Below, piece after piece: positions 9,770 to 57,320 of a stretch of DNA of 64,000 nt. This DNA comes from Bacteroidota bacterium (GTDB lineage Bacteria > Bacteroidota > Bacteroidia > JABEUT01). The notes under the pieces were generated by a model. It made no database searches and was not told the origin of the DNA. It saw nothing but the letters and a program-made list of their open reading frames with translations. Position 1 is the stretch's first letter; every line of letters starts with the position of its first letter. Position numbers and translations under genes: made by a program. Where the stretch lies: assembly GCA_013285805.1 (NCBI GenBank), contig JABDGY010000002.1:6011-70010 (forward strand), in the 5' to 3' direction.

Positions 9770-10942
9770 TTGACATTTAAGGACTTTAATTTTGAACCCG
9801 AACTTATAGAGGGTTTATATTCAATGGGTTTTAAACAACCCACACCCATTCAGGAACAGGCTATTCCCATAATACTTAATAACCACGACATTATAGCATG
9901 CGCCCAGACAGGTACCGGTAAAACGGCGGCTTACCTGCTTCCTCTCATTAATAAAATAATTCAGCATAAGAGTGAAACGGTGAACACACTTGTTATAGTT
10001 CCCACACGCGAACTTGCCATACAAATAGACGAAGCTATACAGGGCTTTACATACTTTGCTCCCGTAAGCGCGCTTGCTATTTATGGTGGTAACGATGGTG
10101 CATCGTATGAACGTGAAAGAAAAGCCCTTGTTCACGGAGCTAATATTATTATTGCCACACCCGGGAGGCTTATTTCTCATTTAAATATGGGCTACGTAAA
10201 GTTTAACCAGCTGCAACATTTGGTTTTAGATGAAGCGGACCGCATGCTCGACATGGGCTTTAATGACGACATAACCAAGATCCTGAGCTTTTTGCCGAAG
10301 CAGCGCCAAAACCTTCTTTTCTCTGCTACTATGCCGCACAAAATAAGGGCACTGGCAAAAAAAATATTGCATAACCCGGAACAAATTAATATATCGCTTT
10401 CAAAGCCGGCTGAAGGTATTGAACAGGCGGCTTATATAGTCGAAAACCGGGGGAAGATGCACTTACTTAAATCGATTTTACAGGAAAATAAAGCGAAAAG
10501 TATATTGATATTTTCATCTACAAAAGATAAAGTAAAGGATATTGAAAGAGAGCTGCGTCAGGCAGGTTTTAATGTGGCAGCTATACACTCAGACCTGGAA
10601 CAGGACAGACGTAATGAAGTAATGAGGGACTATAAAAGCGGCAAGCTAAACGTATTGGTTGCAACCGATATACTTTCACGAGGGATAGATATTGAGTCTA
10701 TTGGCATTGTAATAAATTACGATGTGCCGAGAGACGCTGAAGATTACATTCACCGTGTAGGAAGAACAGCCAGGGCTGAATCTACAGGTATGGCCATTAC
10801 ATTTATAAATGCTGACGACCAGTATAAGTTCAAAAAGATTGAGAACCTCATTGGCAATGAAATAAAAAAATTACCTGTGCCTGCCGGCCATGAGGTAAAG
10901 AAAACTGCTGATAAGCACCATTTGCATAAACCGCATAATTAA
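9770..10942 (+). CDS. DEAD-box ATP-dependent RNA helicase
   Basis: Q-motif, Walker A AQTGTGKT, PTRELA, DEAD (VLDEADRML), SAT and HRVGRTAR motifs. The start codon is TTG. Confidence 0.9.
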   Translation: MTFKDFNFEPELIEGLYSMGFKQPTPIQEQAIPIILNNHDIIACAQTGTGKTAAYLLPLINKIIQHKSETVNTLVIVPTRELAIQIDEAIQGFTYFAPVSALAIYGGNDGASYERERKALVHGANIIIATPGRLISHLNMGYVKFNQLQHLVLDEADRMLDMGFNDDITKILSFLPKQRQNLLFSATMPHKIRALAKKILHNPEQINISLSKPAEGIEQAAYIVENRGKMHLLKSILQENKAKSILIFSSTKDKVKDIERELRQAGFNVAAIHSDLEQDRRNEVMRDYKSGKLNVLVATDILSRGIDIESIGIVINYDVPRDAEDYIHRVGRTARAESTGMAITFINADDQYKFKKIENLIGNEIKKLPVPAGHEVKKTADKHHLHKPHN

Positions 10943-11347: not shown

Positions 11348-13498
11348 TTAAAACCGGAAGCCCATAATTAACATATCATCTGTTTGAAAAGTGCTGCCTC
11401 TCCATTCGAGGTGCACATTTTCCAAAATATTCTTTTGCTCTGCAAGTGGCTTTTTATGGATATCAAGCAACAATTGCTTGAACTTTCCCTTCATGAATTT
11501 CTTTCCCGTTTTTCCGTTAAGCTGGTCAGCGTACCCATCTGAGAACAAATATACTACATCGCCCTTTTTTATTTCAATGGTACTATCTGTAATAGTATCG
11601 CCCTGTATTTGCGGAATGGCTCCTATACTATACCTGAGAGGTGCCATTTCAACCAGTTGATTATCGCGTATAAAATAGAGGGGATTATACGCTCCTGCAA
11701 ATGAAAGAGTAGCCCGGCCATCTGTTTTATCAAGCGAAGCAATGGCCATATCCATTCCCTCCCTTGAATACAATTCATCGGTTGTAGCAAAGCGTTTTAC
11801 AATGCTCGAATTCATCTCTTTAAGAATATCCTTGGGGTCGTGTATTCCCAATTCATTTATAATATGGTTCAGTAAATCATTGCCTACAATAGTAAGCAGT
11901 GCACCCGGAACACCATGTCCCGTACAATCTACAGCGGCCATAATAATTTTCGACTTATTCTGAATGCTTCCCATCCAGTAAAAATCGCCGCTTACAATAT
12001 CCTTAGGCTTATAATAAATAAATGATTCAGGCACCAGTTCTTTAATGCTTTTATCTGTTGGCAGAATAGATTGCTGTATCCTCTTAGCGTATTGAATACT
12101 GTCTGTAATATCCTTATTCTTTTGCCGTAGTTCTCCTTCAATTTCTTTTAGCGCTGTAATATCAGAATCAATAACAATAATATTCTGTAGCTTGCCTTGC
12201 TCATCAAAAATAGGCGATAATATTGACTGGAACCAGCGCCTTCCTGTCTCCATATTACTGGCCTCCGATTCATAGGAAACCGGTACTTTCTTCTCAACGC
12301 ATTCTTTAACCAGCACCTCAATTTCAGGGTGGGTACTCAATTCAGTAAGCGTGGTACCCCTTTCCTGTTTATATTCATCAATCGACATACCGTACGAATC
12401 AAAAAAAGTATTGTTCACCCACTCCACCTCAAGCTTCGAGTTAAAAATCATAACTGTATTTGTAGATTTACTTACAACCGATGATAGTTTTGCAAGTTCA
12501 CGGTTCAGCCTCTCTTTCTGGCGTGCGTTGCTATACATAAAGGCCGCGAATACAATAACAACCAGCAACCCGCTAGTACCCGACCATAAAATAAGGGCTG
12601 TCTTTTGTTTCTCTTTCTCGACAATTTCGTCTTTTCTTTCTTGTTCAGCTTTTTGCTGCAAATCTCTCTCTTCCTGCTTCTTATTTAAATTAATAATTTT
12701 AACTGAATCCTGTAATTGACTGGTATGCAGCCTTGCTTCAGCCAGTTCTTTTACGGCATTAAGCGATAATATAACCTGGTCCTTCCGTTCCGATTCTTCT
12801 TTCAGCAATCGCTCCTGCTTGGTTTTGTAATTGGTTTCGAGCACTACAAGATTATACCTGGCAGAGGTTTGTGATGAATCAAGGTCAAGTACTTTCTGGT
12901 AACTTTCTTTAGCTAACTGGTAATATGCATCGGCCTTTATATCTTTTTCATTATCAAACATTTCAGCGTAAAGCGAACCCAGTGCGTTGTCAAACTCTAT
13001 CTCGTTTTTTTTCACATTAAAATTAGGATCAGCATGCCTCATAAGTTCTATGTACTTATTATATGCGTCCGCACCAAGCGCAATGCCCGATTCCCCTTGC
13101 TTTAAAAGCCTTACAGCATCGTTATGATACGTTGTGGCAATATACTTCAGGTTTTTCCTGATGTCCTGCAATACATCCGTATCTCCTTCTATTTCCATGG
13201 CTTTTTGAAACGCTTTTGCCGATTTCTCCCGGTATTCCGATTTTACATTTCCCCTTTCATATTTCTTGAACATATCCTTATAAATCAGTCCGTCGTAAAA
13301 CCAGTATTTGGGATCACTTGTGTAGTGTGGGTCAGTAATATGGGCATCGGCAATAGCTGAAGCTGAGTCAATAAAACCCTCATTAAAATACGTAATCATT
13401 TGCTTTATTGCATTTTGCCCCTGTTGCTGGCAAACCGCATTAAGTGAGCAGGTAATTAAAGAGCAAATAAAAAGTAAGACTATATATATTTTCTTCAT
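11348..13498 (-). CDS. sensor protein with signal peptide, TPR-like region, coiled coil, TM helix, PAS domain and SpoIIE/PP2C phosphatase domain
   Basis: TM helix LILWSGTSGLLVVIVFAAFMY, a PAS-like segment (STNTVMIFNSKLEVEWVNNTFFDSYG), and the PP2C motifs DIVSGDFYWMG, AAVDCTGHGVPGALL and DGYADQ. Confidence 0.85.
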   Translation of the reverse strand: MKKIYIVLLFICSLITCSLNAVCQQQGQNAIKQMITYFNEGFIDSASAIADAHITDPHYTSDPKYWFYDGLIYKDMFKKYERGNVKSEYREKSAKAFQKAMEIEGDTDVLQDIRKNLKYIATTYHNDAVRLLKQGESGIALGADAYNKYIELMRHADPNFNVKKNEIEFDNALGSLYAEMFDNEKDIKADAYYQLAKESYQKVLDLDSSQTSARYNLVVLETNYKTKQERLLKEESERKDQVILSLNAVKELAEARLHTSQLQDSVKIINLNKKQEERDLQQKAEQERKDEIVEKEKQKTALILWSGTSGLLVVIVFAAFMYSNARQKERLNRELAKLSSVVSKSTNTVMIFNSKLEVEWVNNTFFDSYGMSIDEYKQERGTTLTELSTHPEIEVLVKECVEKKVPVSYESEASNMETGRRWFQSILSPIFDEQGKLQNIIVIDSDITALKEIEGELRQKNKDITDSIQYAKRIQQSILPTDKSIKELVPESFIYYKPKDIVSGDFYWMGSIQNKSKIIMAAVDCTGHGVPGALLTIVGNDLLNHIINELGIHDPKDILKEMNSSIVKRFATTDELYSREGMDMAIASLDKTDGRATLSFAGAYNPLYFIRDNQLVEMAPLRYSIGAIPQIQGDTITDSTIEIKKGDVVYLFSDGYADQLNGKTGKKFMKGKFKQLLLDIHKKPLAEQKNILENVHLEWRGSTFQTDDMLIMGFRF

Positions 13499-13533: not shown

Positions 13534-15219
13534 TTATCTGATAAACCTGAACTCTGTTCTCCGGTTAACCTTATTGTCATCTTCACTGCATTTTACACCA
13601 TGCCTGCATTTATTCAAAAGTTTTGTGTCTCCATACCCATAACCGCTCACTCTTCTTGCATCTATCCCGTTAGCAATAATAAAATCAACTACTACTTTAG
13701 CCCTGTCCTGTGATAACTTCATATTATCTGCCGGATCGCCCACTGCATCCGTATGTGATGAGATTCTTAACTTAAGGTTCGGGTATTTGTCGAGTGCTGC
13801 AATAACCTGGTAAACCACCGTTTGTGCGTCATCAGAAAGATTGGAGGAACCTGTTTCATATGTAATATGAGTGGTTATAGTTGTAGCCGTGTCAGATGAT
13901 TTGATGAAATACTGCAGGTTAAAGTAATTATCCTCCTCATCAATAGAATCAATATTTGACAGCTCGTAGGCAAACTGCCCGTTAGAATTTTTTGAAAGGT
14001 TCTGTACAATTTTACCATTTGATTTGGCAATAGCTATTGTTGCATTAGCTGGCAGTTTATCGTTTTTCGCAAGTACAACCTGGTATTTACTGTCGGGGTG
14101 AACTTTCTCGAAAGCGAAGGCTCCGGTATTATCGGTTGTTGTTGTCTGTATTACTTTCTTTGCACTTACCAGTGAAACGCCTTGTTGTGCTAGGGGTAAT
14201 TTTTGCTTACCATCCTGGTCCCCATATAACAGTTTCGCATGATAGTTCACATTTGTCCTTAAACTGAGACACCACATATCACTTCCATCCGACCCCAGCA
14301 AACCGCTCTTGGTTTTTCCGCCCCCCATGTAGGCTGCATTATCAATAACAAAACAGAATGCGTCATTCCTTGCACTAGGCAGCGTATCGTCTGTTTGCTT
14401 CCAGCTTTTGCCGGCAGGGTCATATTCCCAGCAGTCGTGATAACGGACTTTAGAACCATTATATCCCGAAAAAACGTATCCTTTATTATTGATTGAAAAT
14501 ACTGTGGCACCAAGCCTGTCAGGGCCCGGAAAATCTTCTGCTTTCGTCCAGATGTTGCTTACCGCGTTATAGGTATAAATATTCCTTTTACCAGCGGTTA
14601 CCTCTAATTTTTCATCTCCGAACATAACGTAGGCCAGGTTATTTACAATAAACACAGAGGGGCTTATCCTGCCTATTTCAGGAAAATCAGCCTTTTTGTG
14701 CCATTCATCCATCTTCGGGTCATATTCCCACAAATCATTGTATGATTTTCCTTTGCCAGGTACATTTCCCAACCCTATATATCCTTTACTTCCTATTGAA
14801 AAAGCCAACGCTCCATATCTCGGTTCGCCCGGAAAATCGGCCCTTTTTGTCCACTTGCCTGTAGCGGGGTCATATTCCCATAAATCATTACCACCGGCTT
14901 CTGCCTGTCCCGTTCCTTCAAGGCCTGTGCCTATGTAAGCTTTATCGCCAACAGTAAAACAGGCGGCAAGGCTGCGTGTAACACCCGGAAAATCGGGCAT
15001 TTTTTTCCACATATCAGTTTTAGGGTCATATTGCCAGAAATCATTATCAAGAAGCAAATAGCCCTTACCGGCAACAACAAAGGTTGCTTCTCCTTTTATT
15101 TTACCTCCCGGAAAAGCGGCTTTGTTTTCCCAAACCAACTCTTTATTCTGGGCTGATAAGCTTAGTGTGAAGAGTGAATAAAATGCAAGAAAAAGTAAAT
15201 ACCTGAAAAAACGCCTCAT
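13534..15219 (-). CDS. Kelch-repeat beta-propeller protein with a CarbopepD-regulatory-like domain and a C-terminal OmpA-family peptidoglycan-binding domain
   Basis: Repeated WxKxADFPG kelch-like blades, and a C-terminal OmpA_C motif NLKLRISSHTDAVGDPADNMKLSQDRAKVV...RRTEFRFIR. Confidence 0.75.
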   Translation of the reverse strand: MRRFFRYLLFLAFYSLFTLSLSAQNKELVWENKAAFPGGKIKGEATFVVAGKGYLLLDNDFWQYDPKTDMWKKMPDFPGVTRSLAACFTVGDKAYIGTGLEGTGQAEAGGNDLWEYDPATGKWTKRADFPGEPRYGALAFSIGSKGYIGLGNVPGKGKSYNDLWEYDPKMDEWHKKADFPEIGRISPSVFIVNNLAYVMFGDEKLEVTAGKRNIYTYNAVSNIWTKAEDFPGPDRLGATVFSINNKGYVFSGYNGSKVRYHDCWEYDPAGKSWKQTDDTLPSARNDAFCFVIDNAAYMGGGKTKSGLLGSDGSDMWCLSLRTNVNYHAKLLYGDQDGKQKLPLAQQGVSLVSAKKVIQTTTTDNTGAFAFEKVHPDSKYQVVLAKNDKLPANATIAIAKSNGKIVQNLSKNSNGQFAYELSNIDSIDEEDNYFNLQYFIKSSDTATTITTHITYETGSSNLSDDAQTVVYQVIAALDKYPNLKLRISSHTDAVGDPADNMKLSQDRAKVVVDFIIANGIDARRVSGYGYGDTKLLNKCRHGVKCSEDDNKVNRRTEFRFIR

Positions 15220-17835: not shown

Positions 17836-19293
17836 ATGCCCTACTTCTATACATACATAAAAAAAGTACACTTTCTAATTCTATTTGCCTGGCCATTCCC
17901 CCTGCTTTTAAAGGCCCAAACCGATAAAAAAACCTATAAGCTCACTAAAATAATTACAGGCAAGTTGTCGCCCAAATCAATTAACAATAACGGGAAGAAT
18001 ATGTTCTTTGCCCAGAACATGATGTATAATCACACCGTTACTGTTTATGATAGCACATTTAATCTTGTAGCCACTATTAATGACAAAGTTAAACCGGCAG
18101 ATTTCGGATTTGAAAAAATTAAAGGGACATTAACAGGCGCACCGGTAGAAAGTGCTGCGACAAAAGACGGCAAATACGTATGGGTGAGTAATTATAATAT
18201 GGAGGGCGATGGGTATAGCAATCCGGGGTGCGATACATGCAATGGTAAGGGATACGACCAAAGTTTTGTATATAAAATAAACACACAAGGCCTTAAAATA
18301 GAGAGCATTGTCAAGGTAGGCAGCGTCCCTAAATTTTTAGCTATAACACCCGACCAGAAAAAGCTGATTGTAAGCAATTGGAGCAGCGGAGATGTAAGTA
18401 TAATTGACCTTGTAACGGAGAAAGAACTTAAACGGATTAATGTAGGCCCTGCACCTAGAGGTATTGCCTGCGATACCGGAAGCACTTTTGCTTACGTGGC
18501 AATAATGGGCGCATGGAAAATTGTTAAAATCAACCTAACTACTTACGAAACTGAAACATTTGTTTCGGGTATAAGGAACCCCAGGCACTTGTGTATTGAT
18601 AAAGATTACCTGTATGCAAGCCTGAATGGGGAACAGGCAGTTTGCCGTATTAACCTGCTTACTGCCAGAATAGAAAAACTAACTGTAGGAAAAGCGCCAC
18701 GTAGTATGGTTATTTCACCAGTGTACCATAAACTGTTTGTGGATTGCTACGAGGACAGCAAGATTGCCGTAGTTGACCTTACCACATTTAAACCTGAAAC
18801 AGATATTAAATGCGGTAAATATCCTATCGGTGTTTGTTTAAGCAACGACAACAAGCAAGTACTTGTATCATGCTACACGGGTTACATAGAAGTTTTTTCT
18901 GAAGAAAAAGCAAACATAAATAAAGTAGTGCCGGTAGCAGTTACTGCGAAAAAAGAGAACAATACCAATTCGTCGCCTGTATTGCCGGGAAAAAAGAACC
19001 TTCTTCAAAGTATCTTACCTGTTGCAATAACCTTGGCAGCAATTCAAAAACCCCTTGACCAAAAAAATCAGGGTAATTGCTACATTGTTCTGGGGTGCTT
19101 TTCAGTGAAGGAAAATGCTTTGAACCTGAAAGATAAGTTATTAAAAAAGGGAGTTGCAGTAGAGTTGATTGACACGAAAAAAGGAATCACTTATTGCGCA
19201 TATAGAACCAGTAAGGATAATGACAGGTACGAAAAACAAATGGTCGAACTTGAAGCCATTACAGGGATAAAGGGCTGGCTGTATGAAATTTAA
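17836..19293 (+). CDS. YVTN-type beta-propeller protein with a C-terminal SPOR-like domain
   Basis: Repeated blades (KLIVSNWSSGDVSIIDL.., FAYVAIMGAWKIVKINL..), and a C-terminal module YIVLGCFSVKENALNLKDKLLKKGVAVELI that resembles SPOR. Confidence 0.6.
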   Translation: MPYFYTYIKKVHFLILFAWPFPLLLKAQTDKKTYKLTKIITGKLSPKSINNNGKNMFFAQNMMYNHTVTVYDSTFNLVATINDKVKPADFGFEKIKGTLTGAPVESAATKDGKYVWVSNYNMEGDGYSNPGCDTCNGKGYDQSFVYKINTQGLKIESIVKVGSVPKFLAITPDQKKLIVSNWSSGDVSIIDLVTEKELKRINVGPAPRGIACDTGSTFAYVAIMGAWKIVKINLTTYETETFVSGIRNPRHLCIDKDYLYASLNGEQAVCRINLLTARIEKLTVGKAPRSMVISPVYHKLFVDCYEDSKIAVVDLTTFKPETDIKCGKYPIGVCLSNDNKQVLVSCYTGYIEVFSEEKANINKVVPVAVTAKKENNTNSSPVLPGKKNLLQSILPVAITLAAIQKPLDQKNQGNCYIVLGCFSVKENALNLKDKLLKKGVAVELIDTKKGITYCAYRTSKDNDRYEKQMVELEAITGIKGWLYEI

Positions 19294-19302
19294 CAACTTA
19301 GT

Positions 19303-20403
19303 TTAAAACATAGAATGTGAGTCTCCATTACCCACTTTCGTCTGAGGAGTGTAACGTAACGATATTTCCCATGCACCCTGGCCAGTAGTGGCCGATATAT
19401 ATTGCGAAGTATTTATATCATAACTAAAACCTATGGAGTATGAAGGGAATTCCATTTGGAGTAACGCGATAAATGCATCGCCTGCACGGTAGTATATACC
19501 AAAGTCTGCTACACGGCTTTTCGAAAAATCGGTATAATGGCTCGATTGTAAACCTAATGCATATCTTAACTTTATTCCCAGGTCAATCTCCTGGGCGGGT
19601 CCCTGCCTATAAAAGACAGCTAAAGGCGCCAATGCCATATTTGAACCGGACATCTTAAACTCCGCACCGGCATGGAACACATAACGAATATATAAATTGG
19701 TGCCAGGGCCATTGGTGCCATAGAAAGACATGTCGGGCTGATTAATATGAAAGAAAGCCACACCTACATTATATTTTACATATTGGCTGGATGCAATATT
19801 TACCGCTGATGAAGAATAATTATACAAAAGGCCTCCAGAAAAATCGGAATACGATAGTGTATGGCCTGCTAATGGCTCGCCCGTTGCAGCATTTGGGTCA
19901 TACTGCCCATTGATGTACTGCTCATCCCATGGTACATTCTGAAGGTTCATACTGTTCTGCGACCAACCTCCCTGAAGCCCTGCTGTTATGGTATTCTTTG
20001 GGTCTAAATATACTCCCCCGGCAAGACTGAAATTCACTTCGGTAGTGGTTAATTGTATGGTTCCCGCTTTGTCACTGAAAAACGAAATACCTGGCGACAG
20101 GAAGCCGCCTTTCCAGCCCTGCAATACATTCTTATATTCAGCCGATGCCGCCATGGTACTGAATTCATAACCACTGCCTAATGAAGCTGCCCACTGGTTA
20201 CGATAATTTATTTCTGCGCGGAAATCTCCATTGAAAGCGCCACAAAGAGCAGGGTTCAATGTAAGTGATGATTCATAAAACTGCGTAAAATGAATATCCT
20301 GAGCCCTGATGTTAAATGGGGAACAGATCAATAAGACAATAACTATCCGCAACAAATGCTTTGCGGCCGGTAGTTTCTTATATGTCTTTTCTTTCCTGCT
20401 CAT
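19303..20403 (-). CDS. PorP/SprF family type IX secretion system membrane protein
   Basis: N-terminus AQDIHFTQFYESSLTLNPALCGAFNGDFRAEINYRNQW is the PorP/SprF hallmark. It lies 9 bp downstream of a type-B CTD gene. Confidence 0.9.
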   Translation of the reverse strand: MSRKEKTYKKLPAAKHLLRIVIVLLICSPFNIRAQDIHFTQFYESSLTLNPALCGAFNGDFRAEINYRNQWAASLGSGYEFSTMAASAEYKNVLQGWKGGFLSPGISFFSDKAGTIQLTTTEVNFSLAGGVYLDPKNTITAGLQGGWSQNSMNLQNVPWDEQYINGQYDPNAATGEPLAGHTLSYSDFSGGLLYNYSSSAVNIASSQYVKYNVGVAFFHINQPDMSFYGTNGPGTNLYIRYVFHAGAEFKMSGSNMALAPLAVFYRQGPAQEIDLGIKLRYALGLQSSHYTDFSKSRVADFGIYYRAGDAFIALLQMEFPSYSIGFSYDINTSQYISATTGQGAWEISLRYTPQTKVGNGDSHSMF

Positions 20404-20411
20404 CTTTGTTT

Positions 20412-22391
20412 TTACCTTACTAATCCGACATTACCTTTCTTCTGCACCTTAGTGCCATCATCAAGGGTAGCTTCAACATAATAACCATATACACCCACGT
20501 TCATAGCCTGACCATTGTACCTGCCATCCCAGCCTATATTCCGGTTATTCGATTCAAATACTTTATTACCCCATCTGTCATATACTATAAAATCAAGTTC
20601 TTTGATGCAATTACCTCTTACATATAGAATATCGTTATGTCCATCACCATCAGGTGAGAAAGCGCCGGGAACAAATACTTCGCCGCAAATGTCTTCTACA
20701 TGTATTGTTACCGTATCGTCAGTTTTACACCCATTGCTATCAATTACAAATAATGTGTAGGTAGTTGTTGTTGTAGGGCTGGCCACAGGGTCAGGACAGT
20801 TATCGCAACTTAATGATGAAGTCGGTACCCACATATAACTATCTCCTGAAGGCCCGCTTCCGGTTATGGGAGCGCTATTACCAATAAGTATGGTTGTTGC
20901 TCCTGACGCGGTTACTCCGGTAGGGTTAGGGTTAACTATAACCTGTTCACTATCTTTAACTGAGCAGGCTCCGTTGAATACTGTAACTACATAAGTTGTC
21001 GAAGATCCCGGGGTAGCAGCAGGATCAGATATGCTGTCCTGGTTCACGGTGGCAGATGGAGACCAACTGTAACTGCTTCCGCCTGAAGCCGATAACACAG
21101 CATAACCACCCTTGCATATTTTCTGTGTGCCTCCTACTGCGGCTACAGGCATAGTATCCACCTTCACCGCTATATTTGTGGTATCGGTACATCCTATTGA
21201 ATCTTTACCCACCACACTATATGTAGTGGAAGCTGAAGGAGTTCCGGTTGTAACAGAACATGTATTGCAACTTACACCTGTGGAAGGTAACCATGTATAT
21301 GTAGATGCTCCCGTAGCTGAAAGCGAAACGTTACTGCCAATACAAATTTCATTAGGCGAGGAAGTAGCGATAACAGCCGGGCCTGGGCTAACAGTTAGTT
21401 TAACGGTATCGGATGAAGTCATGCCATTACCAATTATACAATAATAGGTATAGCCGCTCATAGAAGTTGTAGCACCTGTTATATTAAGTGTTGGTGTGGT
21501 TGCGCCTGAATATATACCTCCGTTAACCACGTTAACGAATCCGCTGCCGGGGTTAACTTCCCACTGAAAATTCATTCCTATACCTGTATCCACAACAGTA
21601 AGCGAGGTATCGAACAAATTACAGGTAGTAATTGAGTTGGGTTGAACAGTAACCGGTGTAACACCCATTGGGCCGGAATTATCGGCCAATACCCATGAAC
21701 GTAGAAGGTTAGCCGGTGTTATATTACCAGATGATACAGTCTTTAAAACACTGTTATCTGTACCCCAACTGCCATAAAAATCGGCCCAGGTAGCTCCTGT
21801 GGGGTTAAATCGTTGCACAAAAAGGTTCTTTTCGGTTATCGCATTCCCCGGAGCCGTTACTTCACCCATTATATAAGTGAATGTAACATCGGATGTTGGT
21901 TTTGTTGCATAGCTGCCTGCATCTATTATCCAGAACCTGTCCACTGCCTTAGCTGAATTATCAACTACAGTATTTCCATGCATATTAGTTACGCCAGTGG
22001 GCATATACGTTAGGTTATCCCATGTTGGCCCATGATAAGTAGAGAAATTTATAGAACCTGTTGTGTCGCCGGCAGTGGTTACATTCATAGTAACAGGTAT
22101 GTAATTGGTAGTAGAATCACCAAAGGGAACTATATAATTTCCTGCGCTTGAACCTATGTTCCATTTTACCTGGTTAAATTCAGCTTCCGAAATTATCCAC
22201 CCTTGTCCGGGATTTACAATTGCAGTTGCCGAAGGATTATCAATAACAAGCAATGGGCTATTCTCCATAACTATATACGCACTGTCAAACACAATTTGTT
22301 GCTGCGCCTTGGTACATAAAGCAACTAACAGTAGCACAAAAACTGTTACTACTCTAAAGAACAATAATATTATGTGCCTATTTTTTTGCAT
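20412..22391 (-). CDS. T9SS type-B C-terminal domain (gliding-motility-associated CTD) surface protein with Ig-like repeats
   Basis: The C-terminus [19 protein letters not shown]...[12 protein letters not shown]...[19 protein letters not shown]...KGNVGLVR matches the type-B CTD. Upstream are repeated Cys-containing Ig-like modules. It overlaps the giant upstream gene by 14 bp. Confidence 0.85.
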
Positions 22392-25300
22392 TGGCCTGCG
22401 CTTTTATCAACTGCTGAAGCTCGGCTAATTCTTTCTGATACAAGGCCTGTGAATTAAGCATTGCATTCATTTGTGATTGTAACTGGTCTATCTGTTTCTG
22501 CAGTGAAGCGTTTTGATCCTTCAGTTGTTTGTTTTGCTGCTGAACTGCACTAATTGAATCTACCAGGTTCTTTTCGGTAGAATTTAGTTTCCTGTTTAAT
22601 GCTTGTACACCTGCCAATGCAACGCCCGGCGGGTCAATGGTGGAAATGGTCACGCTATCATCACCAACATGGAACATGCGATAGAAATCCTGTGCCATTG
22701 GGCCAATATGCTGAATTTTACCGGTGTCGGTTTTGTAATTCCAGCGTAGAATCGGAAGTGCGTCTATACGCTTAAGAATATCGGCTCCGTCAAGAACAAC
22801 AAAATTTTCCTTTTTATTCCTGTCAGAGGTATATGTCCATGCAGCAGAGCTGTTCGCAAGCTGGGCATATAAGCCTGATGCGGTTTGTATACTTACTGCG
22901 TATCCGGCAACATAAGGTGCACCATTTATACCGGTAAATGTTACACTGGTATTTCCAAGCTCCATCATATTGTTGTTACTTACAACTGCACCGTTACCTA
23001 CTGCTGTAGCATTTGTAAGGGTACCTGAACTGGCTTGTGCCTGGTAACCTAAAAATGTATTGTTAGAGCCACTGGTATTAGCCGTGCCTGCCGTACCAGC
23101 CTGGTAACCTAATGCGGTATTATTTGAGCCTGTGTTACTTAATAACGAGGACCATCCGATAGAAGTATTATTGCTTCCGGCACTATTATTATTCAACGCT
23201 TCATAACCCAAAGCGGTATTTAATGCCCCGGTAGTATTTGCCTGCAATGCTGATGCACCAACACCTGTATTCTGGTTTCCTGAACTATTAACCTGTAATG
23301 CTTCATATCCAACAGCCGTATTCAGGCTAACTGTTGATGTTACTGCCTCTTTCAAGGCAAAGTAACCCACTGCTGTATTATCTGCCCCGGTTGTATTGTT
23401 GAGTAATGCCTGGTAACCCATTGCAGTATTATTGTTACCACTTGAATTGGTTTGCATTGCCTGGTAACCTAACGCCGCGTTACTGGTTCCTGACGTATTT
23501 GATCCCATGGCTTCGAAACCTACGGCTGCATTATTGCTATTAGTATTTAGTTGAAGGGCACCTGAACCAACAGCAACGTTATCGGCGCCGGTTAAATTTA
23601 CATTAAGGGCCTGGTATCCTATACCTACGTTAGCGGCACCTGAAGTATTCTTATTCAATGCAGTGTGACCAATGGCTATATTCTGGCTACCGGTATTAGC
23701 CTGCAACGTCATATTACCGACAGCTATATTATTAGTACCAGACGTTGCATTCTGCATTGCATTTTCACCTACCGCTACGTTTGCAAAAGCCGTAGTATTC
23801 GATTGTAATGCCGAACGGCCTATAGCAGTATTTCCTAAACCACTAGTATTACTTAATAGGGCCCGGCTACCAACTGCCGTGTTATCATAACCACCTCCAC
23901 TATTATTTGTCAGTGCAAGGTTACCAATTGCCGTATTATTCGAGTCGGAAGTAGCATTCTGGTTGAGCAATGCATTAAAACCAACGGCTGTATTGTTCCA
24001 TCCTGTTGTATTTGCGTCAAGAGCCTGGTACCCCAACGCTGTATTATTTGTACCGGTTGAATTACCCTGCAAGGCGTTGTATCCCACAGCAGTCAAGTTG
24101 TTGGCCGTGGTATTAAACAGTGCGTAATAACCTATTCCTGTATTATTATTTCCGGTTGAACTGTTCAAGGCATTAGAACCGACAGCCGTATTTTGATTAC
24201 CGGTGGAGTTAAGGACAAGAGTGTTATTACCGATAGCTGTATTATCGTGCCCGCTTGTGTTTGTCGTGAGTGCCGTATTCCCTATTGCAGTATTACTTGT
24301 AGCAGTAATAGTCCCGCCTGTCTGGAATCCAAAAAAAGTATTGCCGTTAGCATTATCTATTCTGCCTGAAGCTACATTGTCTACTCTGAAATTAAGAGGT
24401 ACGTTATCGGTGGTACCTATAAAGTTTGTTCCATCAACTGTGCCTGCATTGCCTGTCAGCAACCATGCACTGTCTTTAACATATGAGGCACCTGAACCAC
24501 CTGCAACAGTTGTCCATTGCGGAGCAACACCAGGGCCTTTTGAAGTAAGTACCTGACCAGATGTACCAGCCTGGTAAGCTGCAGTATAATAAGGCATTAA
24601 TGCACCAGCGAATTTTACAGCAATAGGCGCCCTGGCCCCAGCACTGTCTCCCAAATAAATTTGATTAGACAATGATTTATTAGATATACCCGCTTCATAT
24701 CCAAGGTAAACGTTGTTTACTCCTATTGTATTATTATAACCAGCACTATCGCCAACAAACGTATTAAAACTACCAGTAGTGTTATCGTTACCTGCACTAT
24801 TACCCAATGCAGTTATTCCTGTACCTGTTGAAGTATTAAAACCTGCATTATAGCCAACATAAGTGCTATACCAGCCTGTACTATTAGTAAAGCCAGACCC
24901 TACACCGACTGAAGTATTATAACTTCCTGTTGTATTATAATAAAGAACATAGGCACCTAAACCCGTATTTTGAATACCGGTAGTATTTGCAAGCATATTA
25001 ATATTCCCAATCGCTGTATTATGATATCCCGTTGTATTAACCGGCAAGGCTAAATACCCGACAGCGGTATTGGAGTACCCAGTAGTATTTGCAGGTAAAG
25101 CATTATAACCAATTCCTGTATTGCTTGAACCGGTAGTATTACTCTTACCATTTTGATATCCATAAAATGTATTATTATTACCTGCATAGTCTATCCACCC
25201 TGACGTTTGTCCATTCACTTTAATTTGCAATGCTTCACCATCGTTAGTTCCAATCCAATTATTTGTTGGGTTAGTACCAGAATTACCTGTCAGCAACCAT

Positions 25301-28300
25301 GCACTATCTTTAACATATGAAGTGGTCAAACTGGTTGTCCATTGGGGTGCCACACCCGGCCCCTTAGAGGTTAATACCTGTCCAGATGTACCAGCCTGGT
25401 AAGCTGCAGTATAATAAGGCATTAATGCACCGTTAAATTCAAATTGGGTAACAGAATTGTTTCCCATAGTCATTGTATTGCTGGTAGAAACAGAAGCATT
25501 ATATCCCACAGCTGTTGCATTATTTAATGCGGCCGATGCTACATTAGCTCCGGAACCGATGGCTGTATTCTGGGTTCCGGAAGTGTTTGTACTTAATGCA
25601 TTATCACCCACTGATACATTATTGCTTCCTGTTGTATTTGCTTTTAATGACTGGTAGCCAACTGCGGTGTTGGGTGTTCCGGTTGTATTCACATTTAAAG
25701 CCTGGTAGCCAACTCCTGTATTATTAGAAGCACTGTTATTATAAAGCGCCTCATATCCTGCAGCGGTATTGTCGGCTCCAGTGGTGTTTGCATTAAGAGC
25801 ACCCTGACCGAATGCAGAATTATCACTTCCTGAAGTATTCGCAAAAAGCGAAACCATGCCGTTGGCAGTATTGTTTATACCCGTGGTATTTGAATTACCC
25901 GATTCGTATCCGAAGAAAGTATTTGCAAGGGTATTATCTATTCTACCTGATTTCTGGTTGTTAACTCTAATGTTGAAAGGAACATTATTTGTAGTACCAA
26001 TAAAATTAGTCCCGTCAACCGTATTTGAATTACCTAATAATAACCATGCACTGTCTTTTATATCACCAGGGCCAGTAGGACCAGTAGCTCCATTTGTTCC
26101 TGCTGTGCCGGTTGAGCCTGTAACTCCAGTTGCGCCCGTTGCGCCATTTGTTCCTGCTGTGCCGGTTGAACCTGTTGCGCCTGTGGCACCCGTTGCCCCG
26201 TTAGTACCCGCTGTGCCGGTTGAACCTGTTGCGCCAGTGGCGCCTGCTGTTCCGGTTGAACCTGTTACACCAGTTGCGCCTGTGGCTCCATTACTACCTG
26301 CTGTGCCAGTTGAACCCGTAACACCTGTTGCTCCTGTGGCTCCATTACTACCTGCTGTGCCAGTTGAACCCGTAACACCTGTTGCTCCTGTAGCCCCTGT
26401 AGTTCCATTAGTTCCTGCTGTGCCGGTTGCGCCCGTTACGCCAGTGGCACCCGTTGCTCCATTACTACCTGCTGTGCCAGTTGAACCCGTAACACCTGTT
26501 GCTCCGGTGGCTCCATTTGTTCCCGCTGTGCCTGTTGAGCCTGTGGCTCCTGTAGCACCGGTTGCTCCGTTTGTTCCTGCTGTGCCTGTTGAGCCTGTTA
26601 CGCCTGTGGCTCCTGTAGCTCCATTAGTACCTGCTGTGCCCGTTGAGCCTGTGGCTCCTGTAGCACCGGTTGCTCCATTTGTTCCTGCTGTGCCTGTTGA
26701 GCCTGTTGCACCAGTTGCTCCTGTTGTTCCTATTCCGGTTGGACCGGTTGTTCCATCTGCTCCCGTGGGGCCCGTTACTCCATTAGTACCTGCAACACCT
26801 GTTGAGCCTGTTGCACCGGTTGCTCCTGTTGTTCCTATTCCGGTTGGACCCGTTATTCCATCGGCTCCTGTAGGGCCAGTTACTCCATTCGTTCCCGCTA
26901 CGCCTGTTGCACCGGTTGCGCCAGTAGCTCCTGTTGTTCCTATTCCGGTTGGACCGGTTGTTCCATCAGCTCCCGTGGGGCCCGTTACTCCATTAGTACC
27001 TGCAACACCTGTTGAGCCTGTTGCACCGGTTGCTCCTGTTGTTCCTATTCCGGTTGGACCGGTTGTTCCATCAGCTCCCGTGGGGCCTGTTACTCCATTG
27101 GTTCCTGCTATGCCTGTTGCTCCGGTAGCTCCTGTTGTTCCTATTCCGGTTGGACCGGTTGTTCCATTAGCACCTGTGGGGCCCGTTACTCCATCAGTAC
27201 CTGCAACACCTGTTGAGCCTGTTGCGCCAGTAGCTCCTGTTGTTCCTATTCCGGTTGGACCGGTTGTTCCATCTGCTCCCGTAGGGCCTGTTACTCCATT
27301 AGTACCCGCTACACCTGTTGCTCCTGTTGCACCGGTTACTCCATTTGCCCCGGCAGTTCCAGTTGCACCGGTGGCGCCAACCGCATAACCTGCATTTATT
27401 GTTGTTGAATTAGATAAACCTATATATAATGAATCATTAGTAATAGTAGCAGAAATTACATACAAGCCCGTTGCTCCTGTTACGCCGTTAGTACCTGCAA
27501 TACCTGTTGCTCCTGTAGCTCCATTTGTTCCAGCAGTTCCCGTTGGACCGGTCACTCCGTCAGCTCCTGTGGGGCCTGTTACTCCATTAGTACCCACTAC
27601 ACCTGTTGCTCCTGTTGTACCGGTTACTCCATTTGCCCCGGCAGTTCCAGTTGCACCGGTGGCGCCAACCGCATAACCTGCATTTATTGTTGTTGAATTA
27701 GATAAACCTATATATAATGAATCATTAGTAATAGTAGCAGAAATTACATACAAGCCCGTTGCTCCTGTTACGCCGTTAGTACCTGCAATACCTGTTGCTC
27801 CTGTAGCTCCATTTGTTCCAGCAGTTCCCGTTGGACCGGTCACTCCGTCAGCTCCTGTGGGGCCAGTTACTCCATTAGTTCCCGCAACACCTGTTGCACC
27901 AGTCGCACCCGTTGTTCCTATTCCAGTTGGACCTGTTATTCCATCAACACCTGTGGGGCCGGTTACTCCATTTGTTCCGGCAATGCCAGTTGCACCAGTC
28001 GGGCCGGTTGCTCCAGTCGTTCCTATTCCTGTCGGACCCGTTATTCCATCAGCTCCCGTAGGGCCGGTTGCTCCATTAGAGCCAGCTACTCCGGTTGCAC
28101 CAGTCGCTCCGGTAGGGCCTATAACATAACCCACATTAATTTGCGTACCGTTGGAAAACGATATATATAAGGAATCACTTATAACACTAACACCAGTTAT
28201 ACTTATACCAGTTGGGCCTGTAACTCCTGTAGTTCCTGCAATACCTGTGGTTCCCATAGCACCTGTTGCTCCGGTTGGGCCTGCAGGACCTGCAGTAGTG

Positions 28301-28872
28301 TCAGCCGGACCTGTTACTCCGGTTGCACCTATAGCACCTGTTGTGCCGGTAGCTCCATTTATACCGGCAACCCCGGTAGCACCCGTAGCACCTGTGGGGC
28401 CTAGAACGTAACCTGCATTCAATATTGTACCATTAGTCAGGGAAATAAACAGCGAATCGCTGGCTACTGACATGCTCGCTATACCTACACCTGTCGGGCC
28501 TGTTGGACCAGTAGCGCCCGTCGGACCGGTTGGGCCTGCCGCTCCGATTCCCGTTACAAAAATTGCCCACTCTGCTCCGTCCCAATAATAATATCCGGGT
28601 ACCACATTGAAGGGTATTACACCTGCTGTATTTGTATTGTAAACAATTAAGCCTGTGGCAGGCGCTATTACAGGAGCAGCAACATTGGTAGCCGTAAGCG
28701 CTACCTGGGGAGCAAGAAATCCTAATGTACCGCTGTTACCCGTATTTAAGTCAAGTACGGCCGATGCATTCGGCTTAGCACCCGTTTTATTTATACCTAT
28801 ATTTTGGGCCTGAACTGAGCCAAGAACAAGGAAAAGAAGAGAAAAAAAAAGTAAATTTCTTTTTAAAATCAT
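22378..28872 (-). CDS. giant (2164 aa) secreted collagen-like triple-helix-repeat protein with tail-fiber beta-helix repeats and a C-terminal Peptidase S74-type intramolecular chaperone domain
   Basis: Signal peptide; about 900 aa of Gly-X-Thr triplets ([10 protein letters not shown]...) interrupted by DSLYIxLSNxTxINAGY modules; three modules of DSAWLLxGN...NTAVGYxALxxNTTG 14-15-aa beta-helix-like repeats, each ending [17 protein letters not shown]; and a C-terminal SDRNKKEN...[10 protein letters not shown]...HIGPMAQDF segment plus coiled coil, which matches the endosialidase/tail-fiber chaperone with its Ser-Lys dyad. Confidence 0.85.
25850..28560 (-). repeat. collagen-like (GXT)n coding repeat region with nested tandem DNA repeats (periods 54 bp, about 108 bp, 288 bp)
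   Basis: Near-identical DNA units are visible, including an exact 288-bp tandem duplication (27361-27648 and 27649-27936). The antisense frame yields the artefactual PVAPV ORFs. Confidence 0.85.
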
Positions 28873-29104
28873 TTATACTATTGTTGATCCCCTTTAATCT
28901 ATTCTGCAATGTTTTTCAAGAAAAAACATTAAAAACTCTTATTACTGTCAACAATTACAAGGTGTTGAGACCTCATGAATGTGCTCATTTTCACTTATTT
29001 TACTTGGGGTAATTACAAGGCGCAAGTATAGATTTTACCCCTTTATTTAATGTTATGTGAGTATTAACTTTCAGAGCTTGAATATGAACCAAGTATTATC
29101 AAAA

Positions 29105-29122
29105 TCTGTAGGACTTCTGTAG
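29105..29122. promoter_or_regulatory. conserved intergenic motif TCTGTAGGACTTCTGTAG (copy 1 of 3), 233 bp upstream of the giant fiber gene and 171 bp upstream of dcp
   Basis: Direct heptamer repeat TCTGTAG-N4-TCTGTAG. Near-identical copies lie at 47167-47184 and 56197-56215. Confidence 0.4.
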
Positions 29123-29292
29123 TAATTACGAATTCCATTCATACACTTCATAGAAACAAGCTTATAACCACTTCACAATTTCACCCAACTATTTACATAT
29201 CATTAAGTTATACCTTTCTATTTACAAAATAGCAATTCTCTTGATTTTTGTACCTTTGCGGCCCAAAATACATGGGTAATAAAATTATATTT

Positions 29293-31449
29293 ATGAAAAA
29301 GGTCTATATTTCATTTTTAGCTTTAATAATAATGGTAACTTCCTGCAACAATAACTCGAAACAAAAAGATAGTGCCTCCACTGGTCTTTCACCCGATAAT
29401 CCTTTTGCCAAAGCCAGTACCCTACCCTTTGAGGCACCAGACTTTAGCAAGATAAAAGACAGTAATTTCAAACCCGCGTTAGAAGCAGGAATTAAGGAAC
29501 AGCTTGATGAAATGAATAGGATAGCTGAGAACCCAGATGCACCTACCTTTGAAAATACAATGGTTGCTATGGAGAAAACAGGGCAACTGCTGCATAGGGT
29601 TAATAATGTTTTCAATCTGCTAAGCGGGGCCAACACTGACCCTGAACTGCAAAAACTATCGGAGGAAATTGCACCGGAATTGGCGGCAGAAAATGATGCC
29701 ATTTATCTTAACGATAAACTATTCAAAAGAGTTGAAGCTATTTATAATCAGAAAGCCCAACTGAAACTTGACCCTGAATCGGACAGACTGGTAGAATTCT
29801 ATTACCAGAAATTTGTGCTTTCGGGCGCCAAATTGCCTGATAAAGCCAAAGACAGTTTAAAAAAACTTAATAAAGAAGAAGCGATGCTTGGCGCCAAGTT
29901 TACAAACCAGTTACTGGCCGCTGCTAAATCAGGGGCACTGGTGGTTGATAGTAAAGACGCATTGGCCGGACTTTCTGATGGAGAAATAGATGCTGCCGCT
30001 TTGGCAGCAAAAAATGCTAACCAGGAAGGTAAATGGCTAATCCCTATACGAAATACTACGCAGCAACCCGCGTTACAGTCGTTGAACGTAAGGGCTACCC
30101 GCCAGAAATTATTTGAAGCCTCATGGAATCGCGCTGAAAAAGGAGATTCGAATGATACGCGCCCTACTATTTTACGGATTGCCGCTATTCGCGCGCAAAA
30201 AGCTAAACTTCTTGGATTCCCCAACTATGCTGCGTGGAAGTTAATGGACCAGATGGCAAAAAAACCTGAAGCAGTTGAAAAATTTATAAGCGACCTGGTG
30301 CCTGCTGTAACCGCAAAGGCTAAAATAGAAGCGTCCGACATACAAAAAGTTATAGACCAGCAAAACAAAGGCAATGATAAATTCAAGCTGCAGCCATGTG
30401 ACTGGAATTACTATGCGGAACAGGTTCGCAAAGCAAGGTTCGACCTTGATGAGAGCGAGGTAAAACCTTACTTTGAAATAAATAATGTACTTCAGAATGG
30501 TATTTTTTATGCAGCAAATAAGCTTTACGGGCTTACTTTTAAAGAACGCAAAGACCTTCCGGTATATGATAAGGATGTAAGAGTTTTTGAGGTTTTCGAT
30601 AAGGATGGAACTTCAATGGCATTATTCTACTGCGACTATTTCAAGCGCGATAATAAGAATGGCGGCGCATGGATGGATATAATGATGGGGCAATCGAAAT
30701 TACTTGGCACAAAACCTGTGGTATACAACATTTGCAATTTCACAAAACCTGCCGATGGGCAACCTGCATTAATCAGTTTCGATGACGTAACTACTATGTT
30801 CCATGAATTTGGCCATGCCCTCCATGGAATGTTTGCCGCTGAGCAATACCTTAGTCTTTCAGGCACTGCCACCGCTCGCGATTTTGTTGAATTCCCTTCA
30901 CAGTTTAATGAACATTGGGCATCGGACACAGCGGTATTCCGTAATTACGCAAAACATTATAAAACGGGTGAACCTATGCCCCAGGCCCTTGTAGATAAAA
31001 TAAAGAAAGCAGCTACTTTCAACCAGGGCTACAGCCTTATGGAAATAATTGCTGCTGCCGACCTTGATATGCAATGGCACGAAATATCGGCAGACAGTAA
31101 TGTAACTGACGTTGACAAGTTTGAATCGGCAGCGCTTGCCAAAACGCATCTTAATATGCATGAAGTGCCTACGCGCTACCGTTCCAGTTATTTCCTGCAT
31201 ATATGGAGTAATGGTTATGCAGCAGGCTATTATGCCTATTCATGGACTGAAATGCTTGCCGATGATGCGTTTAGCTGGTTTGAAGAGCATGGAGGCCTAA
31301 CACGTGAAAACGGACAGCGTTTCCGCGATATGATTCTTTCCAGGGGTAACACAGAAGACCTTGCAACTATGTACCGCAATTTCCGTGGCAGAGCCCCTGA
31401 AATTACCTCAATGGCAAAGAAGCGTGGCCTTACTGAAGGTAAAAACTAA
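29293..31449 (+). CDS. dcp: M3-family peptidyl-dipeptidase (Dcp-like) lipoprotein
   Basis: HEFGHALHG zinc motif and M3 family length and organisation. A lipoprotein signal (MKKVYISFLALIIMVTSC) puts the start at 29293 rather than the ORF-track start at 29248. Confidence 0.85.
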   Translation: MKKVYISFLALIIMVTSCNNNSKQKDSASTGLSPDNPFAKASTLPFEAPDFSKIKDSNFKPALEAGIKEQLDEMNRIAENPDAPTFENTMVAMEKTGQLLHRVNNVFNLLSGANTDPELQKLSEEIAPELAAENDAIYLNDKLFKRVEAIYNQKAQLKLDPESDRLVEFYYQKFVLSGAKLPDKAKDSLKKLNKEEAMLGAKFTNQLLAAAKSGALVVDSKDALAGLSDGEIDAAALAAKNANQEGKWLIPIRNTTQQPALQSLNVRATRQKLFEASWNRAEKGDSNDTRPTILRIAAIRAQKAKLLGFPNYAAWKLMDQMAKKPEAVEKFISDLVPAVTAKAKIEASDIQKVIDQQNKGNDKFKLQPCDWNYYAEQVRKARFDLDESEVKPYFEINNVLQNGIFYAANKLYGLTFKERKDLPVYDKDVRVFEVFDKDGTSMALFYCDYFKRDNKNGGAWMDIMMGQSKLLGTKPVVYNICNFTKPADGQPALISFDDVTTMFHEFGHALHGMFAAEQYLSLSGTATARDFVEFPSQFNEHWASDTAVFRNYAKHYKTGEPMPQALVDKIKKAATFNQGYSLMEIIAAADLDMQWHEISADSNVTDVDKFESAALAKTHLNMHEVPTRYRSSYFLHIWSNGYAAGYYAYSWTEMLADDAFSWFEEHGGLTRENGQRFRDMILSRGNTEDLATMYRNFRGRAPEITSMAKKRGLTEGKN

Positions 31450-48333: not shown

Positions 48334-48363
48334 TTATTCGTATATATTATAAAGATAAGTATT

Positions 48364-56072: not shown

Positions 56073-56196
56073 GAACTTTGTTTTAGTGTGTTATTAATAA
56101 ATACTTAAAGTGGCGCAAGAGTAAGGCTTGTTTGTTACCTTATTGTTAATTACATATTACGATAAGTATTCATTTTCAATTGACTGCAGCGCTCAA

Positions 56197-56215
56197 TTCT
56201 GTAGGAAATCTGTAG
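56197..56215. promoter_or_regulatory. conserved intergenic motif TTCTGTAGGAAATCTGTAG (copy 3 of 3), 125 bp upstream of gene 54990..56072
   Basis: Same heptamer direct repeat as copies 1 and 2. Confidence 0.4.
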
Positions 56216-56242
56216 TATGATTTCCACTCCTTATCCATTACC

Positions 56243-57310: not shown

Positions 57311-57320
57311 TGCGTAAAAT

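Follow-up and report, generated by a model that had tools for sequence, protein, structure and literature searches.

Evaluating a 64,000-nucleotide stretch of a soil-type Bacteroidota bacterium genome (GCA_013285805.1, contig JABDGY010000002.1, positions 6,011 to 70,010, forward strand; hereafter "the window", meaning this whole stretch), we found a minus-strand cassette in which a giant collagen-bearing fibre and a type IX secretion system (T9SS) cargo protein open with two domains, here named FibN and G2N, that recur on neighbouring genes across Bacteroidota. The three open reading frames (ORFs) encode the fibre (22378-28872, 2164 aa), gene 2, which carries a type-B T9SS C-terminal sorting domain (CTD; 20412-22391, 659 aa), and gene 3, a PorP/SprF-family protein (19303-20403, 366 aa), and thereby bear out the gene set proposed in an initial annotation made from the DNA alone. 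That annotation had placed 14-bp and 9-bp junctions between the genes; the 14-bp overlap of fibre and gene 2 holds (22378-22391), whereas by coordinates genes 2 and 3 are separated by a gap of 8 bp (20404-20411). We interpret G2N as a T9SS-delivered dock, and possibly an escort, for the base of the fibre, a reading to which we give a probability of about one half.

FibN and G2N recur on neighbouring genes

A G2N-seeded scan of species-representative genomes, with adjacency called by our own hidden Markov models (HMMs), yielded 79 loci holding 84 G2N genes in 1276 kb. A FibN gene lay within 300 bp of 44 of these 84 genes, on the same strand in 42 cases and as often upstream (22) as downstream (22), and since only 55 FibN ORFs occur in the 1276 kb, almost every FibN gene present adjoins G2N. 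Each of the first three G2N contexts inspected likewise has its G2N gene next to a fibre gene with FibN, and all 79 loci belong to Bacteroidota, among them Fluviicola, Chitinophagales, Ohtaekwangia, Saprospirales and Flavobacteriales. Ohtaekwangia kribbensis, which can be cultivated, has two pairs (L048 and L054). The reverse scan, seeded with FibN in metagenomes, gave 29 FibN gene clusters with full context, 9 with an adjacent G2N gene, 4 with another adjacent type-A CTD gene and 16 with neither.

FibN stands at the mature N-terminus of 168 ORFs identified with our HMM, none of which (0/168) carries a CTD, and in homologues its conserved opening Gln always follows directly on the hydrophobic leader. 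All 13 of its closest database homologues (53-72% identity) carry a precomputed match to PF26696, as do the neighbouring fibres at loci L003, L004, L006 and L172, and from this homology we infer that FibN belongs to PF26696 (PTL_trimer). G2N (about 215 aa) is represented by 991 sequences at the 50% clustering level (630 at E<=1e-10), almost always directly after a signal peptide, and neither Pfam nor NCBIfam holds a model for it. Among the best 150 representatives, 117 carry a type-A CTD, 18 a type-B CTD and 13 no detectable CTD, and we read G2N as essentially always fused to a T9SS CTD, usually of type A. Invariant residues are D124/R125/F126/W127, W175 and W206 in G2N and L37-T38, PGYYYW and W80 in FibN.

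Both domains are cellular rather than viral in distribution, with one relative each of FibN and G2N in the 2.9 million viral contigs of IMG/VR and no match of FibN, gene 2 or gene 3 to PHROG. Structure-based searches added little: sequence searches of solved structures with FibN, G2N and the C-terminal half of the fibre returned only type-A CTDs brought in by other alignment rows, and a viral fold search with G2N gave nothing meaningful (best TM-score 0.39). The AlphaFold2 model of the FibN monomer is poor (pLDDT 54), too unreliable for a fold search; the low value is compatible with FibN folding only as a trimer or on a partner, and proves neither.

The initial annotation had tied the fibre translationally to a type-B CTD protein and its PorP partner. 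Coupling of the fibre gene to a T9SS cargo gene is indeed conserved, but not coupling to a type-B CTD/PorP pair as such, as most relatives combine G2N with a type-A CTD and have no PorP gene nearby. On this comparison the conserved unit is the two-gene module of FibN and G2N rather than a fibre with a type-B CTD protein and PorP. The central intuition, that the fibre is functionally tied to the T9SS, is supported, with G2N as the partner in place of the type-B CTD or PorP.

Two further observations concern the partners. Type-A CTD proteins without a clear G2N follow some FibN genes (L148 1540-4425, L156 11507-14368, and at L120, L128, L141, L150 and L161), and the N-termini of these proteins (AQGLVNNGA.IV.NGT...) resemble the first 80 or so positions of the G2N profile weakly (for L148, E=7.5e-5), so the partner family may be broader than our G2N HMM detects. 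A 346-aa fusion of G2N to the second half of FibN (P0261; L170 546-1586) would be a possible Rosetta-stone protein; it was not used because its only source is a 1.7-kb contig of one sample, and it could reflect an artefact of assembly or deletion.

Architecture of the fibre

The fibre divides into the following parts.

28807..28872, minus strand: Sec signal peptide (SPI-type) read from the sequence, aa 1-22, ending in GSVQA before QN
28546..28806, minus strand: FibN, aa 23-109 (QNIGIN..SAvLD..[10 protein letters not shown]..GLiVYNT..PGYYYW.G..W), assigned by homology to PF26696 PTL_trimer
26065..28545, minus strand: collagen-like G-X-T region (Pfam Collagen), aa 110-936, with four 27-aa inserts (..SDSLyIsLsNgTtINaGY..)
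25318..26064, minus strand: module 1, aa 937-1185, with a DSAWLL..NFIGTT cap, NTAxGxxALxxNTTGxx repeats and the end [17 protein letters not shown]
24484..25317, minus strand: module 2, aa 1186-1463, built like module 1, with the second [17 protein letters not shown]
22828..24483, minus strand: module 3, aa 1464-2015, a long 17-residue-repeat solenoid leading into the S74 cleavage site
22603..22827, minus strand: Peptidase_S74 intramolecular chaperone (Pfam), aa 2016-2090 (SDRNKKEN...HIGPMAQDF)
22381..22602, minus strand: C-terminal coiled coil (heptad analysis), aa 2091-2164

The collagen-like stretch is real (Pfam Collagen, E=1e-79), though at 827 aa shorter than the roughly 900 residues first proposed. 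It holds 699 aa in uninterrupted G-X-Y runs (14 runs of 7-73 triplets), with Thr in the Y position of 147 of 233 triplets (63%), and its DNA consists of nested tandem arrays (54 bp x14, 105 bp x6.3 and 288 bp x2.4 at 93% identity). A 510-aa ORF at 25856-27388 on the plus strand lies antisense to these repeats, where local GC is 0.535 and AT skew is strong; it is most likely a shadow ORF arising from repeat composition and no gene. The three tail-fibre-like modules are likewise present, each opening with DSAWLL..GN.GT...NFIGT and continuing in the 17-residue repeat NTAxGxxALxxNTTGxx. Not all three end in [17 protein letters not shown], as had been claimed: the motif occurs twice (aa 1164 and 1439), closing modules 1 and 2 only, and module 3 runs straight into S74.

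Within the C-terminal region, the proposed S74 chaperone matches Peptidase_S74 PF13884 above its curated threshold (36.8 bits vs a cutoff of 22). The match covers aa 2016-2065 and positions 1-51 of the 58 in the profile, which begins at S2016. S2016 and K2021 show the Ser-x4-Lys spacing (S2016-D-R-N-K-K2021) of a catalytic Ser at the cleavage site and a Lys five residues downstream, which we take to be the dyad of endoNF, T5 pb1 and MYRF. Across 120 homologues the SDRNKKEN consensus is 80-90% conserved, and its S, D, K, E and N together with HIGPMAQDF are 80-99% conserved. The fibre is predicted to cut itself between T2015 and S2016, freeing the chaperone and the coiled coil. This coiled coil, also anticipated by the initial annotation, appears as a heptad repeat with 70% hydrophobic a/d positions in the best register, and its coiled-coil Pfam matches are only weak.

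Searches of the fibre with Pfam, NCBIfam and our own CTD HMMs agreed with the earlier claim that it lacks a T9SS sorting domain, finding neither a type-A (PF18962/TIGR04183) nor a type-B (PF13585/TIGR04131) CTD. The whole sequence contains no Cys and no LPXTG motif, and nothing in it matches a YadA-type C-terminal beta-barrel anchor. The SclB/Scl2 LPXTG adhesin assignment (NF038329 equivalog, 336 bits vs a cutoff of 325) was rejected, as Gly-X-Y repeats drive the score and the LPXTG motif is missing.

A phage-type shaft on a cellular N-terminal end

Searching the C-terminal 1228 residues of the fibre against PHROG gave matches to families of virion-structural proteins and tail spikes, with E-values from 1e-95 to 1e-112 (4e-95 for phrog_4636, a tail spike, and 2e-112 for phrog_23837). 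By tblastn the same part matches 112 phage records, with 34-39% identity to annotated phage tail fibres, such as that of Pelagibacter phage HTVC112P (34.5% identity over 82% of the query, E=4e-49), and the tail-fibre likeness suggested from the DNA alone is thus confirmed. Because the shaft and S74 domain are phage-homologous and FibN and G2N are nearly absent from viruses, we call the fibre a chimera, with a phage-type shaft and chaperone set on a cell-specific N-terminal end. The end that attaches to the phage particle appears to have been replaced by this cell-specific one.

These phage matches, together with the NCBI-style name "tail fiber domain-containing protein" carried by relatives, could also be read as a remnant of a prophage, tailocin or contractile injection system, the fibre being the tail fibre of a phage-derived particle. 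We give this hardly any credence, as the fibre bears a Sec signal peptide, its partner genes are T9SS components, and FibN and G2N are virtually absent from IMG/VR. The flanks, too, are chromosomal: a convergent beta-propeller gene (17836-19293) and a divergent Peptidase_M3 gene (29248-31449) border the cassette, with MarR, MFS transporter, isochorismatase and RND efflux genes, all ordinary chromosomal genes, farther out, and the domain annotation of the window shows no capsid, tail, baseplate or integrase gene near the cassette.

Gene 2, gene 3 and the derived type-B configuration

The features of the two downstream genes are as follows.

22305..22391, minus strand: gene 2 signal peptide, aa 1-29, ending in LCTKA before QQQ; gene 2 begins inside the last bases of the fibre gene
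21651..22304, minus strand: G2N, gene 2 aa 30-247, an uncharacterised beta-sandwich domain (..[15 protein letters not shown]..) for which Pfam has no model
20673..21650, minus strand: Cys-containing immunoglobulin-like repeats (stalk), gene 2 aa 248-573, visible in the translation
20415..20672, minus strand: T9SS type-B CTD, gene 2 aa 574-659 (PF13585, TIGR04131)
19303..20403, minus strand: gene 3, PorP/SprF-family outer-membrane protein (PF11751, TIGR03519), directly after the gap that follows gene 2

The assignments of gene 2 as a type-B CTD protein and of gene 3 as PorP/SprF both stand. The gene 2 CTD scores above the cutoffs of CHU_C PF13585 (58.1 bits vs 27) and TIGR04131 (47.9 bits vs 35) at the extreme C-terminus (aa 574-658 of 659), the sole extra match being to Ig_7 at aa 338-415 (22.4 bits, below the cutoff of 27.3), and gene 3 matches PorP_SprF PF11751 (120 bits) and TIGR03519 (156.9 bits vs a cutoff of 90.55). 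The description of gene 2 as SprB-like is not supported, as it has no SprB repeats (PF13573). Type-B CTD cargo need a cognate PorP/SprF-like protein for secretion, stay bound to it and are anchored by it (PMC9143113; PMC12618676), and gene 3 is presumed to be the cognate shuttle and anchor for gene 2. Where type-B operons have no PorE-like gene, the adhesins they encode are reported to be mobile and not static (PMC12618676); the cassette contains no PorE-like gene.

T9SS cargo is unusually plentiful in the window. A second type-B cargo/PorP pair occupies 54990-61301 (minus strand) with a 1326-aa Ig_7 and CHU_C protein (57321-61301), a PorP_SprF gene (56243-57310) and, after it, a 360-aa type-A CTD protein (54990-56072, minus strand); our HMMs found neither FibN nor G2N at this locus. 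Two giant SprB-repeat proteins with type-A CTDs (41248-47109, minus strand, 1953 aa; 50848-54612, plus strand, 1254 aa) enclose a LytTR response regulator and TPR histidine-kinase pair (47584-50490, minus strand). A protein with a Kelch beta-propeller and an OmpA domain, a PorE-like architecture, is encoded at 13534-15219 (minus strand), outside the cassette, 4 kb beyond the PorP gene and with unrelated genes between.

In a neighbour-joining tree of G2N, the window forms one clade with loci L009, L090 and L091, all with a type-B CTD gene followed by a PorP gene, and this clade sits within a wider set of type-A members paired with fibres, L004 and L015 being its sisters. Given the nesting, the type-B/PorP configuration is derived, by a CTD swap that brought the cognate shuttle gene along. 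The three relatives (L009 is a soil metagenome-assembled genome (MAG), Bacteroidia SMAG_U12652, with a G2N 75% identical to that of the window) share the window's gene order, with gene 2 proteins about 67% and PorP proteins 62-66% identical, and do not share its flanking genes, so the unit moves as a cassette. Their recurrence, along with the small HMM E-values, indicates that these features are not due to chance. An independent G2N type-B gene followed by PorP occurs at L172 (8001-17270), there ahead of four FibN (PTL_trimer) proteins in tandem, which carry Fn3 and Fib_succ_major domains in their C-terminal parts in place of fibres. With such passengers, FibN behaves as a portable N-terminal docking module that is not limited to S74 fibres.

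Comparing the window fibre with those of the three relatives revealed a gradient of identity, from 78% in FibN and 70% in S74 to 55% in the coiled coil and 38-51% in the modules (45-51% between module 1 sequences), a pattern that reads as typical of tail fibres. The orthologous fibres (L009 6727-9930, L090 9917-12997, L091 9917-13048) reach only 1021-1043 aa; they contain two modules, and their collagen spans 27-66 aa. The window fibre is a lineage-specific expansion, with collagen more than 10 times longer and one extra, duplicated solenoid module. Expansion of repeats seems to make fibre length evolve rapidly. At the S74 end, even the nearest homologues reach no more than 44-48% identity; their contexts (L001, L003) are unrelated and contain neither a type-B CTD nor PorP, and S74, as a mobile module, was set aside as a poor marker of orthology.

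The fast evolution of the distal modules is what an arms-race interface would produce, and the homology of shaft and S74 to phage tail fibres would also fit a phage-defence decoy or receptor mimic, in which a domesticated fibre masks a cell receptor or binds and neutralises phage or competitor cells. We regard this as very unlikely: a fast-evolving tip would be just as compatible with any adhesin, non-phage passengers such as Fib_succ_major are borne by other FibN proteins, and general domain annotation of the neighbourhood reveals neither defence genes nor mobile elements, although no dedicated search for defence families was made.

A docking model and its alternatives

To summarize the proposed biology, we interpret the three genes as a chromosomal cassette that would build a long cell-surface fibre. 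The fibre would be exported by Sec and trimerise from its C-terminus under the control of S74, which would then self-cleave before Ser2016 and come away with the coiled coil, leaving a phage-tail-fibre-like solenoid tip on a collagen stalk of about 200 nm (699 residues x 0.29 nm). Its FibN base would dock onto the G2N of gene 2, acting as a surface socket, and the fast-evolving solenoid tip would be the likely binding end, as expected of an adhesin or receptor-binding fibre. Gene 2 is itself cargo of the T9SS, with a type-B CTD for which it would need the co-encoded PorP/SprF as its dedicated shuttle and outer-membrane anchor. G2N might further accompany the CTD-less fibre on its way through the T9SS translocon. 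In this stronger form, which we hold only tentatively and lean against, FibN-tagged passengers, whether CTD-less trimeric fibres or others, would ride the T9SS piggy-back via the G2N adaptor and stay moored to it, the adaptor being fixed by anionic lipopolysaccharide (A-LPS) where its CTD is of type A or, as in the window, by a PorP-like barrel where it is of type B.

Several points weigh against docking. Binding of FibN to G2N is inferred from their genomic pairing, and the operon solely from the short overlap and gap between the genes. Of the FibN genes whose context is complete, about half stand alone among housekeeping genes, with no recurrent gene family among the neighbours of these orphans, and a monophyletic clade of type-A G2N genes from Flavobacteriales MAGs (L058-L084) has no adjacent FibN gene; given these solo FibN genes and this fibre-less clade, adjacency of FibN and G2N is frequent and not obligatory. 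Divergence of G2N and FibN is correlated significantly but weakly (Mantel r=0.26), as would be expected for linked genes anyway. We know of no T9SS cargo that is carried by an adaptor, and the model gives no account of how so large a trimer (about 2000 residues per chain), CTD-less and exported by Sec, would pass the outer membrane. The G2N genes of the L058-L084 clade (each with its G2N match at about 10001-10750) lie in a conserved locus of their own beside minus-strand ORFs of about 570 aa and 1720 aa, and they may be orphan sockets or serve another G2N function.

The same solo genes on both sides, and the reliance on genomic pairing, would suit a relationship of co-regulation without contact, in which the fibre and the G2N-CTD protein are physically independent adhesins or matrix components, G2N neither binds nor escorts, and the fibre gets out by other means (in vesicles, on lysis or by an unrecognised signal); in Tannerella, outer-membrane vesicles were found to contain another Bacteroidota "tail fiber domain-containing protein" (PMC10682907). 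We consider such independence rather unlikely. The pairing survives inversion of gene order, swaps of CTD type and changes of passenger, a pattern suggesting that selection acts on the pair of N-terminal domains; within their proteins FibN and G2N show the strongest conservation, and no FibN protein has a CTD of its own.

Genomic evidence identical to that for docking with delivery by G2N would be expected if G2N were a static anchor only and the fibre crossed the outer membrane by a T9SS-independent pathway before attaching to G2N at the surface. This arrangement would avoid an unprecedented piggy-back transport, and a G2N gene at another place in the genome could serve orphan FibN genes. It nevertheless strikes us as quite unlikely, as no alternative export machinery lies in or near any examined locus and Bacteroidota are generally known to have few other routes for large folded proteins.

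Comparison with known systems

Phage fibres and tailspikes with S74, such as the K1F endosialidase and the T5 L-shaped tail fibre pb1, resemble the window fibre in a repetitive beta-solenoid shaft followed by a C-terminal S74 with the Ser-Lys spacing, and in a conserved N-terminal attachment end combined with a variable distal part. The window fibre differs from them by its Sec signal peptide and chromosomal, non-phage setting, by its cell-specific FibN and collagen stalk of about 830 aa, and by the coiled coil after S74. Genes 2 and 3 resemble SprB-SprF of Flavobacterium johnsoniae and PG1035-PorP of Porphyromonas gingivalis, as a textbook type-B cargo with an adjacent PorP/SprF. Gene 2 differs in being without SprB repeats, with its G2N found in relatives mostly on type-A CTD proteins without PorP, and the cassette differs by the translationally coupled, CTD-less giant fibre upstream and by its lack of a PorE-like gene.

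BclA of the Bacillus exosporium forms trimeric, G-X-T collagen-like filaments; its C-terminal domain brings about trimerisation, and a short N-terminal domain fastens it to BxpB/ExsFA, a separate anchor protein at the base. The pair of BclA and BxpB/ExsFA would be the closest functional analogy to the proposed docking of FibN on G2N; BclA has no sequence relationship to the fibre, belongs to a Gram-positive spore, ends in a C1q-like domain instead of S74 and has no T9SS. The LPXTG-bearing streptococcal Scl1/Scl2 and Legionella Lcl are similar as collagen-like surface adhesins, but the fibre has different N- and C-terminal domains and no LPXTG and is not a member of that family. Trimeric autotransporter adhesins (YadA/BadA) share NTAxG-type head-like repeats, and many S74-bearing homologues carry PF05658 and the Joint Genome Institute (JGI) name "trimeric autotransporter adhesin". 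The fibre differs from YadA/BadA in having no C-terminal beta-barrel anchor, a 17-residue repeat and the opposite polarity, its C-terminus being the part that would be cleaved off.

Regulatory context

Upstream of the fibre gene lies one intergenic region, shared with the divergent Peptidase_M3 gene.

28873..29247, minus strand: presumed promoter region, 376 bp by sequence read

Promoter and terminator scans, including one for the Bacteroidetes TTTG...TAnnTTTG motif, gave counts no higher than in shuffled sequence and were uninformative, so no promoter was assigned. Genes for TPR- or PAS-SpoIIE (PP2C) phosphatases recur near G2N/FibN loci (L004 1-3366, L006 4612-9800, L172 1-4119), at L006 and L172 with SiaC (PF09345) and DUF6272 and directly adjoining the G2N/FibN pair. 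The window has SpoIIE genes at 5254-7245 and 11348-13498 (both minus strand), 6-15 kb from the cassette, and no SiaC/DUF6272. From these recurrent neighbours, fibre expression may be regulated by partner switching.

Meaning for Bacteroidota surface biology

Type-B/PorP pairs, S74 fibres and bacterial collagens are already known kinds. Full-text literature searches brought up no work on PF26696/PTL, on a part played by S74 proteins in the surface biology of Bacteroidota or on T9SS-linked fibres of collagen type, and to our knowledge a conserved FibN-G2N module and a CTD-less cargo serviced by a CTD-bearing partner are undescribed. Every T9SS cargo described so far bears, as far as we know, its own C-terminal sorting domain; FibN is a widespread Bacteroidota family never found with a CTD and persistently beside a small CTD-bearing partner, and G2N comprises about 1000 sequence clusters that have no Pfam model. 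If the docking reading is true, T9SS secretion and surface anchoring would gain a new principle, cargo recruited in trans, a role would be explained for many "tail fiber domain-containing" proteins of environmental Bacteroidota, and a phage receptor-binding fibre would be shown to have turned into a cellular appendage by a swap of its attachment end. If the piggy-back form is true as well, it would be the first adaptor-mediated (hitch-hiker) T9SS secretion and would give a new kind of Bacteroidota surface appendage built on a domesticated phage tail-fibre shaft. A FibN tag and a G2N socket would form a modular system usable for surface display, and the more than 10-fold collagen expansion suggests that the length of such fibres may be tunable by repeat recombination.

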